From Candidatus Poribacteria bacterium (GTDB lineage Bacteria; Poribacteria; WGA-4E; WGA-3G): a DNA stretch of 64,000 bases. Position 1 is the stretch's first letter, and each line of letters opens with the position of its first letter. This document shows, piece by piece, positions 26,979 through 35,178 of this stretch. Made by a program: the position numbers and the translations under genes. The stretch spans positions 5,152,001 through 5,216,000 of the forward strand of contig OZ251518.1 in assembly GCA_965242965.1 (NCBI GenBank). The letters are read 5' to 3'. The notes under the pieces are model-generated. The model was not told the origin of the DNA, made no database searches, and worked only from the letters and a program-made list of their open reading frames with translations.

Positions 26979-28406
26979 TTAGTTCTCTTCTTCTGCACGC
27001 TCGGCAGAGTTACCACCGAAGAGCCGTTCAATCAATTCCGCTGTCTCCGCATCGTCTGACTTGAGTTTGCGAAGGCCTTTCTCCTCACCATGGCGGTTCA
27101 AGGTTTCCATCGCACGCTGGAGACGTTCAGGTTCCAGTTCAAACTGCTCTCGGAGTTTCGCCTCAATGCTTTCGTTTGTCGGAAGTTCTGGCATCTGCGG
27201 CGTTAGCAGCTTCTCAAGTTCCGCCGCTATCTCCGCATCGCTCAGCGTCGTCCACTCGCGGGACTGTTCTTGCATCCGTTCAAATTTCTCTTGCGCAGCA
27301 CGGGCGGCTTCCTGAACCCGGTCTGGTGCTTCATCAACGGACTCGGATGCGGGTTGCCTTGAGAGCTCCAAGAGTGCCGGCACCTCTAGCGCAGCATCGT
27401 TGGATGGAACAGGTTCTGCAGTTGGCGTTGGCACGGGTTCAATCCCCAACTGTTCACGCACCGCCCCACGCGAGGGAAGGGAAGCGTCACTGAGGACATT
27501 GCCTTTCTCATCAACGTAGACAACTTCCCATCCATCCGGCACTATACCTCTGTAAAGCAGGTCAAACCGCTGTTTTTCAGAGAGTTGCGGGCCCACAATT
27601 TCCGTTATCTTCCCACTCTCATCCCTCGTTACTGAACTTGACATTGACGCGATAGATGCACCTGTTTCCGAACGCTGAACATACATTCTTCCTGCAGCAG
27701 ATGGATGAACATTTTCACCTATCGTCACCCAACTTTTCACGTCAGGGTTGGCGCGTTTTGCTTCTCGGATGCGTTGGCGCCGCTGAATTAGACTATCAAC
27801 TAACGCCGTTTGCGTTGTTCCCGGTTCATCGCCCGCGGCGCGCTGTTCCTCCCGAAACAGTTTCGAGCGCATGTTCAGGTATGCCTCGTAATCGCCAAAA
27901 TTGTCAATGGTAACCCCTTTGTCAAGGAGCATCTGAATCCACTCGGCGCGGGGATATTCCGCTTCAATGTCAGCCTGCGTCCAATTGACTTTTTGAAGTT
28001 CACCGTCACGGTTTTCTATAGAGAAACTCCCTCTCTGGGTTTCGTTCCTCATATCGTATTGGATATCAAACGCATCCATGAGTGCCGCAACGGTTTGCTG
28101 TCCGTCATACTTCTTCGCCTTGAAAAAGGAGAGCAGTGAACTCTTCTCGCGTTGAACGTCGGCGCGCTTTTCAAATTTCGCGCGCTGTTTGCTCCGGATG
28201 TCGGCTATCTGCGCGCCTGTCAGAGGTGCCGCGTCTGGGTTCTCTGTCTTGAATGTTTCAAGCATCCGCGTGACAGCAGCTTCCGTTTGCACCTCGGTCC
28301 AGTTATCCCACCACGCCTTGGAATTTTGCTCGGCGCGCCACACGAGGAAGGCGGCTCCCAAAACGAGCAAAAGTAACACGGCGATGGCAATGTGTCTGCC
28401 TTTCAT
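26979..28406 (-). CDS. Hypothetical membrane-anchored protein
   Basis: AAGGAGG RBS, N-terminal hydrophobic helix, acidic helical C-terminus; family not recognised. Confidence 0.75.
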   Translation of the reverse strand: MKGRHIAIAVLLLLVLGAAFLVWRAEQNSKAWWDNWTEVQTEAAVTRMLETFKTENPDAAPLTGAQIADIRSKQRAKFEKRADVQREKSSLLSFFKAKKYDGQQTVAALMDAFDIQYDMRNETQRGSFSIENRDGELQKVNWTQADIEAEYPRAEWIQMLLDKGVTIDNFGDYEAYLNMRSKLFREEQRAAGDEPGTTQTALVDSLIQRRQRIREAKRANPDVKSWVTIGENVHPSAAGRMYVQRSETGASIASMSSSVTRDESGKITEIVGPQLSEKQRFDLLYRGIVPDGWEVVYVDEKGNVLSDASLPSRGAVREQLGIEPVPTPTAEPVPSNDAALEVPALLELSRQPASESVDEAPDRVQEAARAAQEKFERMQEQSREWTTLSDAEIAAELEKLLTPQMPELPTNESIEAKLREQFELEPERLQRAMETLNRHGEEKGLRKLKSDDAETAELIERLFGGNSAERAEEEN

Positions 28407-28538
28407 GGTAGTTTCCTCCTTCATAGTTGAGAAAAAAGCGTGTGCCTTATGAACCTGCACTTGGGTAGAGTCAATTGAACCGAAAAAGGATAGTAAAAAC
28501 TGACAAAAAAGCGTATCGCTTTATGTAACGTTCACTAT

Positions 28539-29723
28539 TTAGGATACCTCTCGCTTTTGAATTAAGAAAAGGAATTCGCGGTTTGGACGTTCCGATGCGC
28601 TTACCCATTCATGTGTCCACTTCATGCTGGCCATGACGTTTTTCTTATAATTGCGGGCAACGACATCAAGCAGTTTACCATGCTTTTGAATCACTTCATT
28701 GAGTTCTTTGGCGGTTGCCCGGCCGCCAGAACTATATGATAGAAGTATCCATCGCGCTTGCGTTACCTGAATCAGTTTGTCAATTGCATCAACGGCGATG
28801 AAGCGGCCCTCCCGGTTGCGTCGAAATTCTTCAAAAACAGAGGCAGAAACCGTATCTGATGTATCCTTACGTCGCCTTGCCTTCCCAAAAAGTGGCGGCC
28901 GGTCAAAGAGAACAACGCTTTGCCAGAGGTGGTAATATGCGGCGTATCTAACCCGGGAGGCGGGCATTTTATCATTGCTTGATCCGTACGGCGGATCAAA
29001 ATATGCGATGTCTACGGTGACACGCGGTGCTAACTCAAAAATGTCGCTCCGGAAAACTTGATGTTTTCCAGTTGCACAAGTCAGTCTCCGGTTGCCGAGA
29101 AGGTGTGAATCTGCCCTAACGAGATTCGGCACCTTCATTACAAATTCTCGATAGGAGCGAGGTGCCCATTCTCTGAGATAAGCAGAAAAGTGACCAAGGC
29201 TATTGTCAACCTTGTCTAATGCCAAAATTAGACTTGTTAACGCTACCGCTTTATCTACTGCATTGAGGTTGAGCCTTTCAATTTCCTGCCGGACTGCATC
29301 CAATTTGCGCGTGTTATGCAACTGCCATGGTCTCTTAAGCCCATCTTCTTGCATTGCGCATCCGCCGTTAGGATGCCCACCATAATGCTCAGTGAACCAG
29401 CCATCAACAGGCGGAATGGCGTTGAGATGCTCAATGAGCGGTTGATATGCCTCTTGCCGGTTTTCGGAGAGAAGATAGCATCTCCCAAAAATTTCCGACC
29501 ACGGTGCAATGTCATTGCAGAGGAATGTATAGCCCGACTTGGCGAGTGCCTGTGCGACTCGCGTCGTCCCTGAAAAGCCGTCTAAAACGGTTTTCGCCTT
29601 GACTTTCGCGGCTAGATGCAATATGTCAGGGATAAGTTTCAACTTCGATCCGACGTATTTTATGCCTTCTGTGGCAGGGGCATCAAGCCGGAAGTCATCA
29701 AAGAGTGGAAGCGTTTGAGTCAC
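28539..29723 (-). CDS. DNA adenine methyltransferase (D12 class), R-M modification gene
   Basis: KYVGSK, LDGFSGT, YFDPPY; start overlaps stop of upstream nuclease gene. Confidence 0.9.
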   Translation of the reverse strand: MTQTLPLFDDFRLDAPATEGIKYVGSKLKLIPDILHLAAKVKAKTVLDGFSGTTRVAQALAKSGYTFLCNDIAPWSEIFGRCYLLSENRQEAYQPLIEHLNAIPPVDGWFTEHYGGHPNGGCAMQEDGLKRPWQLHNTRKLDAVRQEIERLNLNAVDKAVALTSLILALDKVDNSLGHFSAYLREWAPRSYREFVMKVPNLVRADSHLLGNRRLTCATGKHQVFRSDIFELAPRVTVDIAYFDPPYGSSNDKMPASRVRYAAYYHLWQSVVLFDRPPLFGKARRRKDTSDTVSASVFEEFRRNREGRFIAVDAIDKLIQVTQARWILLSYSSGGRATAKELNEVIQKHGKLLDVVARNYKKNVMASMKWTHEWVSASERPNREFLFLIQKREVS

Positions 29724-30119
29724 GGTTTTATGCTCCTTCTCTGCTTCAGCGCAGCAATGTCTGCGACAATTGCCTCAACGGCTGACGTGTGTCCTGACTC
29801 TGAGCATACCAAAGCGTGAGAAAACAGTTTGACAAGCTGCCGGTTATGCGAATAGTGAATCCATCCACCGGTAAGGCTCTCGAAGTATTTCTGTCCTTTT
29901 GTTGTATGAGTCCACAGCCCACGTTGAAGAGCGTTTGCACTAGCACCGCCGTAGCGCACTTCGCAGACGTAGTCTTCCGAGTTGTCGTAAAAACGGTAGA
30001 CAGGATGCTTCCTACCCCGGCCCCTGTCTTCTCTGGTGATGCGGGCAGTTTCGCGCACTGCACGCTCCCAGTCAAACACAAGAATGTTGCAACGTTGATT
30101 CCTCTCATCGTAGATGAAG

Positions 30120-30182
30120 GGAAAGCCGGCCGACTCGGAAAGCCGGCCGACTCGGAAAGCCGGCCAGCAAAGCCGGCCGACT
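30120..30182. repeat. 17-bp tandem repeat at element end
   Basis: GGAAAGCCGGCCGACTC x2, then GGAAAGCCGGCC and AGCAAAGCCGGCCGACT. Confidence 0.9.
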
Positions 30183-30199
30183 ACGACCTGAACGGAAAA

Positions 30200-30526
30200 C
30201 TAACCACGACCACCACGCAAGACAACACCATAACCAAGTGGCATCTTTTCATAATAAACCTTGTCTACCAAACGCGAATTCGCCCACGCTAGCTCCTTGT
30301 CTAAATCCACACGCGCTATCTCGTCGCGCAAAGCCGCGCGCTCTTCATGAGAATTAGGACCCCCGGAAAATGCGATGCCAGACGCTTTAAGACGCGCAGA
30401 CAACTCATGAGAACGCCCAGAAAGCTCACACGCGCGATGTAGATACGCGGTCCTAAGCTCTTCCAACTGGGAAAAGGAAAGAGACCGCAAAGACGGCAAA
30501 CTCAAAACCGTCGGCAAAATTGACAT
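30200..30526 (-). CDS. Hypothetical 108-aa helical protein
   Basis: AGGAGG RBS before ATG 30526; own promoter TTGCAA-17-TATACT at about 30635-30663. Confidence 0.7.
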   Translation of the reverse strand: MSILPTVLSLPSLRSLSFSQLEELRTAYLHRACELSGRSHELSARLKASGIAFSGGPNSHEERAALRDEIARVDLDKELAWANSRLVDKVYYEKMPLGYGVVLRGGRG

Positions 30527-30885
30527 TTCGGACCTCCTACAAATACTGGTGGCCAGCAAAGCCGGCCACCGATGGCCATATTCACCTTCTACCTGTTTTT
30601 GCAACACCGGCCCGATGCCGATGATTGCAGAAATAGTATAGCATATCCGCAGACTAATTGCAAGATGGCGAACGCGCGCGCCAGCCGCCTGCATTGCAAT
30701 TTGCAATGCCAACCACGCGCGCCGCGGACAAACGTGTAAATAGAATTTTCGATGACACCGTTTACACAATCAAACAGGACAATTGTGTAAACAGAAATCC
30801 GAACAGCAAACGGTTTACACAAAAAACGCGGACAAGGAAAAAAATTTAAACGCGCGACCGCGATAAATGTGTAAAAGTTATCTGT

Positions 30886-31194
30886 CTATCGGAAAACCGA
30901 ACACCTAAACGGGAAAGGTAAATCGGGAACGATACCGTCTACCCAGCAGCCGAACGCAATCCGGCCGCGCTCATGCCGATGTGTTAAGAACTGGCCATCG
31001 GTTAACGTCTTGACTAAACGAAACGCCGAACCGCTCGGTAAACGCGAAACCGATGACAACCACCGAACCGATGCCGATGGGAAAGCATGCCAGCACTCAA
31101 TAAAAGCACGATGCCGAACATCGGGAAATTGCAACTCAAGGACTCGGTATGGGAAATGCCGACCGAACCAATGACCGCGCACTTCAGAACTCAT
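30886..31194 (-). CDS. Small HTH-like protein, paralog of upstream ORF
   Basis: GGAGGA RBS, ATGA overlap; FIECWHAFP-ASVRWLSSVSRLPSGSAFRLVKTL. Confidence 0.65.
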   Translation of the reverse strand: MSSEVRGHWFGRHFPYRVLELQFPDVRHRAFIECWHAFPSASVRWLSSVSRLPSGSAFRLVKTLTDGQFLTHRHERGRIAFGCWVDGIVPDLPFPFRCSVFR

Positions 31195-31505
31195 GGGATA
31201 TCCTCCAACCGAATCCAATAGCAAGACTCGGACAAACGGGAATCCGCAATAGGGACCCCCTCGCAAATTTGACCGCGCACGTCACCGCGCTTTTCTAAAA
31301 GCCGAATTAACCGGCACGCGGTTGGCCGACTAATGCCAGCCAAACGGGAAAGACACGCGATACCCATTTCGGGAAATTGATGCCACTTGACAATAAATTT
31401 CTCTTGACACCATGACCGAACCTTGACTTCGGGAAAGAGACCCAAAGCCTCATACTGCCAATAATACACGAAAACCTCCTTGTAGGTGGCCCACTCAACG
31501 GCCAC
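31191..31505 (-). CDS. Small winged-HTH-like protein
   Basis: FIVKWHQFP-MGIACLSRLAGISRPTACRLIRLLEKRG resembles an IclR/MarR-type HTH. Confidence 0.7.
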   Translation of the reverse strand: MAVEWATYKEVFVYYWQYEALGLFPEVKVRSWCQEKFIVKWHQFPEMGIACLSRLAGISRPTACRLIRLLEKRGDVRGQICEGVPIADSRLSESCYWIRLEDIP

Positions 31506-32234
31506 AGCACTTGACAGAAAAAGTAGTTAAACATTATTCTGCAGAATAATGACAGCACTAAATACGATGCAACCTTGGCCATCAGAGATTGACAGAATCT
31601 CGGATTGCGGTTTTCAGAAAATGCCGACAACCCCCAAACTTGTCAAATAAATGCAAAGAACCAAGAAAACGGTGCAACGTGGTAACACGTTGACATCACG
31701 AAATTCAGTGAAAGCAGGAGCCTCCAGAATTTTTTGGACCGCGCTCCAGTCGCTCACTTCCGGTCCCGCTTGTTCAAGCAACGGAAACATGCGGAAGTTT
31801 TTATCGGTGGAAAGTTGGAGATGTCCTTCACCGTAAGCTTTGAGGCTGACAGGAAATTCTGAGCCCGTGATTTCATTGATAATTTGGATATCCTCCTCCT
31901 TTGACTTCGCACGGTAGTGTTCCTTGCCCACATGAATCGAACTGAAATCATACATGTATTGATTGATGAATTCAGCGATGGCTATCTCCGCCAAATCTCC
32001 GTGGGTTTTGTTCCCGATAAGCCGCAAGGTGAAGATGTTACTGAGCGTGAGCGTGATTAACTCTGGGTTTTTGCTAAACATCAACTTCATGCGCTCAATG
32101 AAGTCTTTGTATGGATTGTGATTGTTCATGAAATCCTATGCCTTTCCGATTAACTAACAAGCGAATTGTTAACGATAATCAAAGTATACGACATTTTTGA
32201 GCAAAATGCAAGAAAAAACGACGCAGTACTACGT

Positions 32235-32475
32235 TTAGGGTGTTTCATAAATCCGTGTCGGCGTGCCATCCCGGTCTCGAATTCATCGTAGGGCGAGGGC
32301 CTGTCCCTCGCCATCGTGCGTGCCCGCGCACCCCAACGCTCGCGGGGGAAACCCGCTCGGATGCACGTGTGGTATCCGAGGGCCCCCGCGCTACGGGCAG
32401 AGAAAAGCCCTACGGGAAAATCGAGACCGGGAGGTCTCTCCTACCGGGAAAACATCAATATATGAAACACCCTCA
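32235..32475. mobile_element. MITE-like TIR shell with REP cargo
   Basis: TTAGGGTGTTTCATA ... TATGAAACACCCTCA enclosing REP A, B-variant and C. Confidence 0.8.
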
Positions 32476-32502
32476 CTTAGATTCGCGTCCACGTGGCATT
32501 CA

Positions 32503-33747
32503 TCACTTGAACGCATCCAACAGAGAAACCATCTCCCCTTGAATTATTTCCTCTACAAACGGTTCCAACGCCAACCGATACGGCCCACTCAGCGCATGGT
32601 TGCGCGGGCCCGCCTCGTAGCCGCCCCGCAAGCCCAATTCATAAGCACGCTGCGTCGCAACGTAGACTTCACTGCCGTTGGTGTAGCCGAAGACGAAGGT
32701 GTGTCCGAACGGCGAATGTTCATCGGCGAACAACTGATATTCCGCGAAGAGTTCATGCGGGAAAGAAAGAAGACAGAGCGCATCGCCGACAGCAAAGGCA
32801 CTCATCGGAAACGGCAAAGTCCGCTTTTCGCCGCTTTTGGCGATGCCTAACAGCGCGACGTAACGTTCGTCATCAGGAAATTCGGCGATGAGCTGCTCGC
32901 ACTCGGCAACCGAAGGTGGGGAACGAAACGGTAACTTCAGGTGAACGGAACGCGCTTTGAGCGCGGCAGATGGAATCTCTTCTGCTGTCTTTAACGCTTG
33001 CGCTGTTGCAAAGGCAAGGGCAAACCCAGCGACATCGCACGCGCTGAAACCGCCGCGCAACGGATAGCCGTTGATATCCGCCGCGCACCCCTGCGCGAAC
33101 ATTAAAACGGTGTCAGGTTTCAAATCCGCACCGATGAAATTGCGCAGATGATTGACTGCGTAACCGGGATAATCGGCACCCATCTCCTCGCTAGCCCAGT
33201 GGACAATCACGGGATGCGCCGCATGCGAAAATAGCACTGCAATGAACTGCCCGTTCGCATCGTCCACGCCTAACACGTCAACCCACGGCACAACCGCTCC
33301 TTCGGGATTCGGTGCCATCGTGATGTAACCGTCATCGTTCATCAGTCGACGGTTGTAGCCAATCTGCACCGGGGCGCGTCCGGCGCGTAGTGTCGCGGGT
33401 TCAAGTGCCGCCACTGCATCCGATACCAGTTTGGCAAGGCAGTCTGCCAGCCACGCCTCAGACTCTTCGGTTATCCAGCGTCCATCAACGCCGGGCGCGT
33501 TGTGCGTATGACTACAGTTGATGACGATGTGCTCGGGTGGGATGTCTGTGGCACGGTAGATAGCGTCTAGCAATACCTGATTGTAGTCAAGCGGAAATTG
33601 TCCGAAGTCTGCCGTGACGATGGCGAGTTGTTTTTCGGCATCGGCGAGCACCAGCGCGCGGGCATAGAGTTCGGCGTAGACATCGGGCTTGTCCTTGATT
33701 TGGGTTATGGGAGTTTCGGCGGCACCTGCCGTTAACGTGGTGTTCAT
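32503..33747 (-). CDS. Neutral/alkaline ceramidase-like amidohydrolase
   Basis: LYARALVL, INCSHTHNAP, HAAHP, ADYPG, QGCAADIN, GYTNG..GGYE; AGGAG before ATG 33747. Confidence 0.8.
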   Translation of the reverse strand: MNTTLTAGAAETPITQIKDKPDVYAELYARALVLADAEKQLAIVTADFGQFPLDYNQVLLDAIYRATDIPPEHIVINCSHTHNAPGVDGRWITEESEAWLADCLAKLVSDAVAALEPATLRAGRAPVQIGYNRRLMNDDGYITMAPNPEGAVVPWVDVLGVDDANGQFIAVLFSHAAHPVIVHWASEEMGADYPGYAVNHLRNFIGADLKPDTVLMFAQGCAADINGYPLRGGFSACDVAGFALAFATAQALKTAEEIPSAALKARSVHLKLPFRSPPSVAECEQLIAEFPDDERYVALLGIAKSGEKRTLPFPMSAFAVGDALCLLSFPHELFAEYQLFADEHSPFGHTFVFGYTNGSEVYVATQRAYELGLRGGYEAGPRNHALSGPYRLALEPFVEEIIQGEMVSLLDAFK

Positions 33748-33769
33748 GGGGTTCTCCTGTCGGTTTGCG

Positions 33770-34098
33770 GCGTGGCGAGGGACAGGCCCTCGCCCTACGA
33801 TGTCGGTTAGATCAGGGTGTTTCATAACCCCGTTTCGGTATTTATTCTGCCTTGGAGGGAGGGCGAATACCGGAAGGCATTGAGCCCATCTCTGTAGTTC
33901 GGGAGCGCCTGATCCCGAACGGGTCAGGATCAGGCGATCCTGACCTACAGGGGTGATGCGGTCTGACAGTCAAACGATGGCGAGGGACAGGCCCTCGCCC
34001 TACGGTGTCAGTTCGGTTGGTTGGCGAGGGACAGGCCCTCGCCCTACGATGGCGGTGTGGTTTGCGGCGTGGCGAGGGACAGGCCCTCGCCCTACGGC
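33770..34098. repeat. REP A/D cluster containing a lone MITE left end at 33812
   Basis: Four REP A copies, D pair and TCAGGGTGTTTCATAACCCCGTTTCGG. Confidence 0.85.
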
Positions 34099-34119
34099 GG
34101 AGGTGCGGTAACGCGTTGC

Positions 34120-35178
34120 TCATGTCAAATCAGCGAGCTGCGGCATCACCTCATTCTGGAGCAAATCCATTGAATGCACCCACTGCTCCTTCGGCTCCCA
34201 CTCGTGTCCCATCGTGAGGAGCACGCCAAAACCACCGACTTCCTCATAGAGTTCGCGGAGGCGGTCCGCGACATGCTCAGGACTGCCCACAATCCACAGC
34301 GTATCCAACAGATTTTCCAGACACGCTTCCACGTCGGGAATGCTCGCGTCTTGCTTGAATTTCTCCCATCCGAATAGGCGGAACCAGTAATCCCGAAAAT
34401 CGCGGCCGAGGGTGCCTTCAAGTGCCTCTTTGCGCGCCTGCTCAGTGGTATCGGCGACGTAGACCTCGCGGGCGATGCGCCACGTAGAACGAGACGGCGA
34501 AAGCCCTGTCTTTGCCGCACCTTCTTCAACTGCGTCCCAATGCGTTTTGATAACGGAGACTGGGGCGAGGTTGATACTCATCGGAATCCAGCCGCGCTCG
34601 CCTGCCAAGATAAGCGTATCCGATTTAGCAGAAGAGCCGGCCACCGCAATCGGCGGGTGCGGTTTCTGATACGGCTTCATGTGGATGCTGACGATGCCCG
34701 TGCGCGGTTCGGGGATTTTAAACTCCCAGAAATCGCTTTTGTAGTGCCCGGGCTCGGGGTCCTCCCAGATTTTGAGGACAGCGTCAATTCCCTCGCGTGT
34801 CGCGCGGCGTCTATCGCCATCTGCCATGAACATCTCCGCGTCGCTCGGCGTGGAACTGGAACCGACACCCCAGTGGAAGCGTCCGTGTGCGAGATGGTCC
34901 AACTGCGCGATGCGATGTGCCACAACAGCAGGGTTGTGTATCGGCATACAGGTAATCCCGGTGCCGAAGACGATGTTTTCTGTCATCGCCACTGCTTTCG
35001 CGATGAAGAGATCTGGGGAGGGGATATTCTCCCACGTGAAGGTAAAATGCTCACCGATGTAAGCTTCCTTGTAGCCCATCCGGTCGAGCGTCACCATCTG
35101 CGCCATATCATCGTCCAGCGTTTTCGTGGTGTCGCTACCGGGTGGATGCAACGGCATCGTGAAAAAACCGAGTTCCAT
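34120..35178 (-). CDS. LLM class flavin-dependent oxidoreductase
   Basis: FFTMPLHPP, YIGEHF, AQLDHLAHGR, PYQKPHPPIAVA, IVGSPE-V. Confidence 0.92.
   Translation of the reverse strand: MELGFFTMPLHPPGSDTTKTLDDDMAQMVTLDRMGYKEAYIGEHFTFTWENIPSPDLFIAKAVAMTENIVFGTGITCMPIHNPAVVAHRIAQLDHLAHGRFHWGVGSSSTPSDAEMFMADGDRRRATREGIDAVLKIWEDPEPGHYKSDFWEFKIPEPRTGIVSIHMKPYQKPHPPIAVAGSSAKSDTLILAGERGWIPMSINLAPVSVIKTHWDAVEEGAAKTGLSPSRSTWRIAREVYVADTTEQARKEALEGTLGRDFRDYWFRLFGWEKFKQDASIPDVEACLENLLDTLWIVGSPEHVADRLRELYEEVGGFGVLLTMGHEWEPKEQWVHSMDLLQNEVMPQLADLT

Follow-up and report, generated by a model that had tools for sequence, protein, structure and literature searches.

The 64,000-nt window analyzed here, from the 5.7-Mb genome of a sponge-associated Candidatus Poribacteria bacterium, contains a type II restriction-modification locus in which a 1,561-bp element, without a recognizable recombinase gene of its own, separates the two parts of the restriction endonuclease gene. 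Throughout the text, coordinates are positions of this window, and "gene orientation" refers to its minus strand. The locus comprises the following parts on either side of the element:

31679..32129, minus strand: restriction endonuclease gene, 5′ part, codons 1-150 and the first base of codon 151; 148 of 150 residues identical to the homolog P0003
29720..30117, minus strand: restriction endonuclease gene, 3′ part, remainder of codon 151 to the stop; 128 of 133 residues identical to residues 150-282 of P0003
28539..29723, minus strand: D12-class N6-adenine DNA methyltransferase gene, 394 aa, intact, with a 4-base overlap with the end of the endonuclease gene

The methyltransferase matches the Pfam model MethyltransfD12 (E = 4.3e-16) and the PADLOC model MTase_II (E = 3.9e-153). 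P0003, an intact homolog of 282 aa that is the best match to the N-terminal piece of the endonuclease (99% identical), matches the PADLOC model REase_II with E = 7.7e-124 over profile positions 5-279 of 281, while the endonuclease family gave no match in Pfam, NCBIfam or PDB sequence searches. At the gene level, the full-length match to the endonuclease model and the adjoining match to the methyltransferase model define a type II restriction-modification locus. A first-pass annotation, made from the sequence alone, had described a split endonuclease gene beside a methylase, and this description holds, as both halves match P0003 and PADLOC names both proteins.

The insertion point lies between codons 150 and 151 of the endonuclease gene, and the N-terminal fragment (P0158) reads 21 codons into the insert. 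Removing the insert in silico restores a frame of 282 aa with one stop and the junction VLPLIYDE, as in P0003 and three other homologs that we inspected. A search for intact homologs across the junction, which the annotation had proposed, yielded P0003 along with over 3,000 relatives of full length: of 3,425 candidates, 3,097 proteins longer than the N-terminal piece (150 aa) match it at E ≤ 0.001, and the 120 homologs listed are nearly all 278-300 aa long, most of them exactly 282 aa. Of the 143 alignment columns with ≥95% conservation in these 120 homologs, 6 differ in the window's copy, and all 6 deviations also occur in the intact P0003. Such a lack of decay in the rejoined endonuclease frame suggests that the insertion event may be recent. 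Judging from the reading frames, the insertion has broken the endonuclease ORF and spared that of the methylase, and it is at this level that the earlier proposal of disabled restriction with retained methylation is upheld.

Other broken alleles exist in the same endonuclease family. In a family-level relative (G010), the homologous gene is interrupted at about codon 25 by an IS630-type insertion (L010 2390-3300; G010:C27, ~86390-87300), whose two ORFs of 106 and 186 aa overlap, the second having a DDE-like C terminus; the IS630 label was given by eye from these ORFs. The proteins P0163 and P0160, both from a 5,040-nt contig, represent an allele at least 90% identical to the present one and broken near codon 126, in which the N-terminal part ends in ...PEVSA and the C-terminal part is continuous through VLPLIYDE, so that the 150/151 site is intact. 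This break reads as a different, independent disruption of the same gene.

Limits of the insert and polymorphism of its site

Part of the region 29700-32100 is contained in 10 public sequencing runs; five of these, from two studies, share 0.87-1.00 of its words, and four sponge-metagenome runs contain about one-fifth of it. Junctions were compared in four runs (X1, X2, X6 and X7), as contigs, and the empty site was found in two of the four. In the empty-site contigs of X1 (2,026 nt) and X2 (2,265 nt), position 30117 is joined straight to position 31679, such that 1,561 bases are skipped with 0 shared bases ("both = 0") and 0 intervening bases. The flanks of these contigs show 14 and 9 differences from the window, respectively, per ~840 positions, the closest lying 40 nt from the joint. 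The filled site was recovered on single contigs in X6 (3,699 nt) and X7 (3,746 nt), which span 29700-32100 fully with 0 differences; these runs belong to two separate studies, one of which, not both, may be the source data of the genome. Independent contigs therefore cross both junctions, a point that the first-pass annotation had singled out for checking.

Because the empty-site contigs join 30117 to 31679, the limits of the element are 30118-31678 (minus strand, 1,561 bp), with no target base shared between the two ends. These limits lie 2 bases to the left of those annotated at first (30120-31680), and the 2-bp CC overlap that had been read from the latter gives way to a joint with no shared base at all. 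The earlier cut also yields 282 aa, since it has the same length as the true insert; it predicts Pro-Phe, where the empty allele, P0003 and the three other inspected homologs have Pro-Leu.

In gene orientation, the element runs from 5′-GTTGCACC to GCTTTCCCT-3′ and is set in its flanks as ...CCAC|GTTGCAC...TTCCCT|TCATC. A repeat search of the insert found no terminal inverted repeats, the two termini being unrelated to each other, and the comparison of empty and filled alleles revealed no target duplication, in agreement with the first reading on both counts. The insertion is seamless, with no target base gained or lost, and its site is polymorphic among close strains in sponge metagenomes.

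Genes, repeats and composition of the element

Read in gene orientation, the element consists of a leader of ~210 nt, ORF1, ORF2, a 360-nt spacer, ORF3 and a block of 17-nt repeats at the 3′ junction. The spacer holds a set of boxes, an A/T tract, GC-rich runs, a 19-nt palindrome, a promoter-like site and a 10-pair hairpin; noncoding DNA makes up ~40% of the element. Its features are, from the 5′ to the 3′ end:

31532..31551, no strand: 20-nt perfect palindrome CATTATTCTGCAGAATAATG in the ORF1 leader (inverted repeat I18)
31191..31469, minus strand: ORF1, 92 aa, small winged-helix/helix-turn-helix (HTH) protein; GTG start 5 nt after AAGGAGG
30886..31194, minus strand: ORF2, 102 aa, paralog of ORF1; its ATG overlaps the TGA of ORF1 (ATGA)
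30733..30876, no strand: array of five GTTTACACA/TGTGTAAAC boxes, alternately oriented, in the ORF2-ORF3 spacer (repeats D7, D8, I5, I12, I17)
30691..30709, no strand: 19-nt perfect palindrome GCATTGCAAATTGCAATGC, preceding the promoter-like site of ORF3
30663-30635, minus strand: ORF3 promoter-like site, TTGCAA-17-TATACT with TG (promoter scan)
30548..30570, minus strand: hairpin GGTGGCCGGC-TTT-GCTGGCCACC in the ORF3 leader; its 17-nt core GGCCGGCTTTGCTGGCC is common with the 3′-terminal hairpin
30200..30526, minus strand: ORF3, 108 aa, no family; AGGAGG 6 nt upstream; two long antiparallel helices in the AlphaFold2 (AF2) model
30120..30183, minus strand: 3′-terminal 17-nt repeat block, two exact units and two variants (repeat family D1)

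Shine-Dalgarno sequences were found for the three small ORFs, as annotated, and the description of two of them as paralogous HTH-like proteins is supported by the alignment of ORF1 and ORF2 (20 of 60 residues identical, 33%; BLASTP E = 5e-7) and by weak IclR/MarR-type HTH matches. ORF1 matches the Pfam model HTH_IclR with E = 5.5e-4, below the cut-off, while its relative P0123 reaches 24 bits, above the cut-off; the relatives of ORF1 begin at the same start position. The AF2 model of ORF1 shows a three-helix core at residues 20-61, with a pLDDT of ~80 there and a mean of 60. Using Foldseek against the PDB, a check suggested at annotation, we obtained for ORF1 weak matches that all are DeoR, AsnC or MarR DNA-binding domains, none of them at E ≤ 0.001; for ORF3, confidently predicted to form a helical hairpin (pLDDT 82), the same search extended to BFVD returned nothing at E ≤ 0.001, and the Atlas search reached a top score of 0.80, which is chance level. 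For ORF2, the 10 best family-bearing Atlas matches (best score 0.91) all belong to clusters of small, stand-alone HTH proteins of the IclR type. When a profile of ORF1 was searched, 27 proteins were collected; the 14 of them that were scanned are generic, either small with a winged HTH or long with multiple HTHs, and were uninformative.

None of the three ORFs matches a transposase, integrase, resolvase, Rep or nuclease model in Pfam, NCBIfam, PHROGs or PADLOC, in accordance with the earlier view of a recombinase-less insert, and none matches Y1_Tnp or TnpB. An Rfam search of 29500-32500 on both strands gave a chance miRNA match only (E = 0.94) and neither an intron ribozyme nor another RNA family.

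The box array between ORF2 and ORF3 appears operator- or iteron-like. In the chromosome, the 7-mer of the TGTGTAAAC box has a frequency of 0.012 per 160 nt, and the sole other cluster of at least 4 boxes in 200 nt is a plain 9-nt tandem repeat. This other TTTACAC cluster (G000:C1:1087737-1087775) reads (GATTTACAC)x4, with a similar (GATGTCCAA) repeat ~120 nt upstream. We considered whether the boxes could be host DnaA boxes and set this aside, as no link to oriC emerged, the other chromosomal cluster being a simple tandem repeat.

On the coding strand, the 3′ repeat block folds into two hairpins of 11-12 pairs, the final stem ending 6 nt before the junction, with a predicted single-stranded DNA fold of -21.4 kcal/mol (z = -3.0; 1 of 200 shuffles as good), while the opposite strand is on a par with shuffled sequences (z = -1.1). 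At the 5′ end, folding is only weak (z = -1.5), and the nearest similar GGCC-stem hairpin lies ~175 nt inside it.

The insert contains three promoter-like sites versus 1.2 ± 0.9 in shuffled sequences, and a single one of them, upstream of ORF3, is a consensus match on the coding strand; the claim that the insert has its own promoter is accordingly not confirmed. As the genes of the insert point the same way as those of the endonuclease and the methylase, this site could feed transcription into the methylase gene. The two others (30520-30547 and 31511-31540, plus strand, 10 of 12 matches each) are antisense to the genes of the element and may drive antisense RNAs; one of them overlaps the 20-nt palindrome in the ORF1 leader.

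In composition, the insert stands apart from its host. Its plus strand has 32.8% A and 17.1% T, an AT skew of +0.31 that is as extreme in 32 of 56,605 chromosome windows of equal size. On the coding strand, the T-A skews of ORF1, ORF2 and ORF3 are 0.25, 0.38 and 0.31, compared with -0.04 ± 0.09 for 2,892 host ORFs of at least 250 aa, a crude set that includes some shadow ORFs, and T occupies 0.33-0.40 of third positions in the ORFs of the element versus 0.21 ± 0.035 in the host. The host repetitive extragenic palindrome (REP; GTAG plus hairpin, consensus CCGTAGGGCGAGGGCCTGTCCCTCGCCA, counted at ≤2 mismatches to a 22-nt core) occurs 2,345 times in the chromosome and 24 times in the window but is absent from the insert (0 copies). 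The insert is foreign, and its T-rich coding strand and lack of host REPs bear out what had been noted of it from the sequence.

Two possible leads from composition were not retained. The other chromosomal regions with extreme AT skew that we inspected lie over long ORFs with an A-rich coding strand, of polarity opposite to the insert, which we took by eye as coiled-coil genes. The target shares TCATCGTAG with a minority REP variant; a link to REPs was rejected, as only CGTAG overlaps the conserved REP core, and TCATCGTAGGGC occurs 303 times in the chromosome compared with the 2,345 REP copies. Examples of REPs in the window lie at 32283-32330 and 33840-34120.

Distribution of the element and candidate helpers

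The element was not found in 60 related genomes searched with the insert DNA; a 38-nt match in G004 (88% identity, E = 3.2e-4) was taken as chance. A profile of ORF3 run over 176 genomes of the phylum recovered itself and one match at E = 0.009. Scans with peptide patterns from ORF1 and ORF3 found no relatives in ~186,000 species genomes, IMG/VR and JGI metagenomes, a 40-residue match inside a 513-aa ORF of a high-GC contig (L011) being rejected as spurious. Phage and plasmid records gave no match, either by insert DNA or by tblastn with ORF1 and ORF3.

Relatives did emerge from a collection of 15 billion proteins: P0123 and P0153 (97 aa), P0124 (87 aa) and P0154 (92 aa) for ORF1, at ~77% identity, and P0126 alone for ORF3, at 72% identity over its full length. 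The metagenome contigs of P0123, P0153, P0124, P0154 and P0126 measure 19,662, 4,503, 4,013, 3,497 and 3,497 nt, respectively. Since the last two have the same length, P0154 and P0126 probably lie on one contig, in which case the gene set would travel together. All these contigs exceed the element in size, so the relatives form part of longer DNA molecules and were not assembled as 1.6-kb circles. A 175-nt contig (X6 record 4; depth 2.5) matches the window only at 30591-30623 (33 bases) and continues into unrelated sequence; it may represent either a divergent relative of the element or a match by chance. No description of such an element turned up in a limited full-text literature search. The element is a rare orphan without a described family.

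Candidate helper enzymes were sought in the host genome. It has two Y1_Tnp loci, namely a RAYT-like Y1 gene with an HLH motif (C1:3147583-3147918; L013) and an IS200/IS605-type locus (G000:C1:3123891-3127127; L012), where a 405-aa TnpB-like ORF stands beside a Y1 TnpA remnant with two internal TGA codons. Genome searches for IS91-type (PF04986, PF14319), Rep_1 and Rep_trans models were blank; three of the four controls were silent in every genome, so that these blanks say little. No DEDD_Tnp_IS110 domain was found in the genome, with a positive control, and the sole resolvase-type match is far off, at C1:972185. Near the insert, the list of ORFs from 27000 to 35000 contains no integrase; the genome was not searched for tyrosine recombinases.

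A second contig of the assembly, C2 (38,183 nt; L017, L018), was considered as a source of a helper and set aside, as no Rep or integrase was found among the 21 ORFs scanned. It resembles a tailed-phage genome, with genes for a large terminase (E = 8.2e-59) and for a portal protein (E = 1.6e-13); it also contains a 1,643-aa ORF, carries almost all ORFs on one strand, and has 1 REP copy versus ~16 expected. C2 is probably a phage or a mis-binned foreign contig.

Routes of insertion and comparison with known systems

The structure of the joint narrows the possible routes of insertion. With zero shared bases at the joint, strand exchange within an identical core is ruled out, and with it the classical tyrosine integrases, the serine recombinases and the IS110 family; ordinary DDE transposition is ruled out by the lack of both a duplication and inverted repeats. 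The routes that remain are single-strand HUH chemistry (of the IS200/IS605 kind or of the IS91/Helitron/Rep kind), Tn916/Tn554-type tyrosine recombination with a coupling sequence, blunt illegitimate joining, or something new. We favor the HUH route on account of the asymmetric ends, the strand-specific hairpin block at the 3′ end and a coding strand biased toward T over A and G over C, as a strand frequently in single-stranded form would be, a case that is circumstantial.

Based on these features, we tentatively propose, as a reading that falls somewhat short of probable, that the insert is a non-autonomous element of a rare family, seamlessly inserted by a single-strand or rolling-circle (HUH) enzyme supplied in trans. 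According to this model, the element would persist inside larger DNA, and its winged-helix pair would bind the TGTGTAAAC box array, thereby regulating or maintaining the element. An HUH-type (Y1/Y2) transposase or Rep would act on a single-stranded or rolling-circle intermediate, cutting and joining single strands with no need for homology; recognition or termination would be signaled by the hairpins that lie 6 nt from the 3′ end, and a history in single-stranded form would account for the coding-strand bias. The insertion may have persisted because losing the endonuclease while keeping the methylase is harmless to the cell.

Several observations weigh against this proposal. The 5.7-Mb genome contains no second copy of the element, as assessed by DNA search, short-word BLAST of the ends and tblastn of the ORFs, and no paralogs or shared end sequences elsewhere; together with the search of the 60 related genomes, this answers the call for other copies made at annotation and leaves the insert single-copy. 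A single insertion site was seen, so that mobility of the family is presumptive, and no helper enzyme was identified in the genome, where neither Y1_Tnp locus contains the GGCCGGC hairpin motif of the element. The 5′ end lacks a convincing hairpin, unlike IS200/IS605 ends. IS91 targets GTTC/CTTG, Helitrons A|T, and IS608 TTAC directly at the junction; the flanks show none of these motifs. Finally, a box array with paired winged-helix genes fits a small replicon equally well.

The main rival is illegitimate joining, in which host repair would once have ligated either a small plasmid or a phage or plasmid fragment, bearing the winged-helix operon, the box array (as origin or operator region) and ORF3, into a double-strand break within the endonuclease gene, where it is now a dead passenger. 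The single copy, with no helper and no shared ends in the genome, is what such a capture would leave, and the content of the insert is replicon-like (iteron-like boxes, palindromes and coupled DNA binders). Moreover, the contigs of the relatives are all larger than the element, as expected for a module of a larger replicon, and the break point falls in noncoding DNA, which is abundant enough in the element that its position carries no signal. However, the joint is perfectly clean, with no base lost or added and no microhomology, and such clean junctions are unusual for end-joining. The 3′ end also lies 6 nt past a strand-specific hairpin block, which is not an arbitrary place, and neither DNA searches nor tblastn with ORF1 and ORF3 matched a phage or plasmid record. 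We consider a one-off capture unlikely, yet serious enough to be kept in view.

A tyrosine recombinase of the Tn916/Tn554 type, acting from an integrative element, would treat the few terminal bases as a coupling sequence from the previous site. Zero overlap is compatible with such systems, which leave no target duplication and need no inverted repeats. On the other hand, no att-like repeats or arm sites were identified, the ORF list around the insert is free of an integrase (with the scope given above), and the strand bias would be unexplained, making this route improbable. The idea that the element is autonomous, with one or more of its three small proteins (for instance the winged-helix pair with ORF3) catalyzing insertion as a new recombinase, draws on the conservation of the ORFs at 72-77% in relatives, on the Shine-Dalgarno sequence before each of them, and on the fact that nothing else in the genome resembles the three proteins. 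Against it stand their size of 92-108 aa, their predicted folds, a helical hairpin and an HTH core of the ordinary kind, in which no catalytic motif could be recognized, and a copy number of one, and we hold it to be very improbable.

The first-pass annotation had pointed to a serine or IS110-type recombinase acting at a 2-bp CC core, and CC does adjoin both junctions in the filled allele; with an empty-site joint that shares no base, a CC cut that would put Phe at a residue that is Leu in both the empty allele and the homologs, no IS110 DEDD domain found in the genome and a lone, distant resolvase-type match, this mechanism is as good as dismissed. An assembly chimera, conceivable for a metagenome-derived genome, is a negligible prospect, as the filled site is reproduced without difference in single contigs of X6 and X7 from two studies.

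A broader proposal may also be formulated: an undescribed class of tiny recombinase-less elements, intermediate between satellite and transposon, which would exist as hairpin-ended single-stranded circles, be written seamlessly into chromosomes by a helper HUH enzyme, and spread partly through restriction knock-outs that are tolerated or favored. In a bolder variant, the winged-helix pair and ORF3 would constitute a new minimal insertion machinery. We regard this broader proposal as speculative and rather unlikely.

Whichever route was used, the locus provides a clean natural case of a restriction gene silenced with its methylase kept, alongside two further split alleles in the endonuclease family. 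If relatives were to sit in other genes with the same ends, the element would stand for a small family of mobile DNA new in symbiont genomes, whose helper would have to be sought, and since empty and filled alleles are both present in public sponge data, the question is directly testable.

Among known systems, insertion sequences (IS) that inactivate restriction genes lead to the same outcome as seen here, a broken endonuclease gene beside a retained methylase gene. Ordinary IS elements, however, come with a transposase, inverted repeats and target duplications, and the present element has none of the three. An integron gene cassette was also considered and rejected: such cassettes have G|TT boundaries and a 3′ attC of the form RYYYAAC ... 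GTTRRRY, whereas the target here has no G at -1 and the element ends in ...CCCT.

Two replicon-based systems resemble the element in content. Iteron plasmids, whose Rep consists of two winged-helix domains acting with iterons, share with it two winged-helix modules, a nearby array of 9-11-nt boxes and an A/T-rich tract. Here, in contrast, the modules are separate proteins of 92 and 102 aa with generic IclR/MarR HTH matches only, no Rep family and no match to a plasmid record. RS1 and TLC of Vibrio cholerae are satellites of filamentous single-stranded DNA phages that integrate at dif via XerCD and carry an RstA-type Rep. Like them, the element is a small, T-rich module coded on one strand, with regulators and origin-like repeats, no integration enzyme of its own and a reliance on outside functions; it differs in that its target lies within a coding gene, it has no Rep, and no phage relative was found.

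Likenesses in mode of insertion are found among HUH elements. The palindrome-associated transposable elements (PATEs) of the IS200/IS605 group, which depend on a Y1 HUH enzyme, also lack target duplications and terminal inverted repeats, have a strand-specific subterminal hairpin a few nucleotides from the 3′ end and rely on functions in trans; the genome does contain Y1_Tnp domains. PATEs are nevertheless short, multi-copy and noncoding, with related hairpins at both ends. The present element, in contrast, occurs once in the genome and bears three genes plus a box array; it lacks a clear 5′ hairpin, and its ends match neither the resident IS605-like element nor the RAYT locus. IS91/ISCR elements and Helitrons, with their non-autonomous forms, are similar in that their ends are asymmetric, a hairpin lies close inside the 3′ end alone, insertion is seamless and a single-strand bias is to be expected. 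They differ in that the flanks here lack GTTC/CTTG or A|T and the termini are not 5′-TC...CTRR-3′, and in that the element has no Y2 transposase, the corresponding genome searches being blank with a silent control. Seamless insertion without a recombinase gene, inverted repeats or a target duplication is rare in bacteria and so far points to HUH transposition or retrohoming. Compared with the two known non-autonomous forms, the present element fits neither, as it is at once gene-bearing, single-copy and replicon-like.

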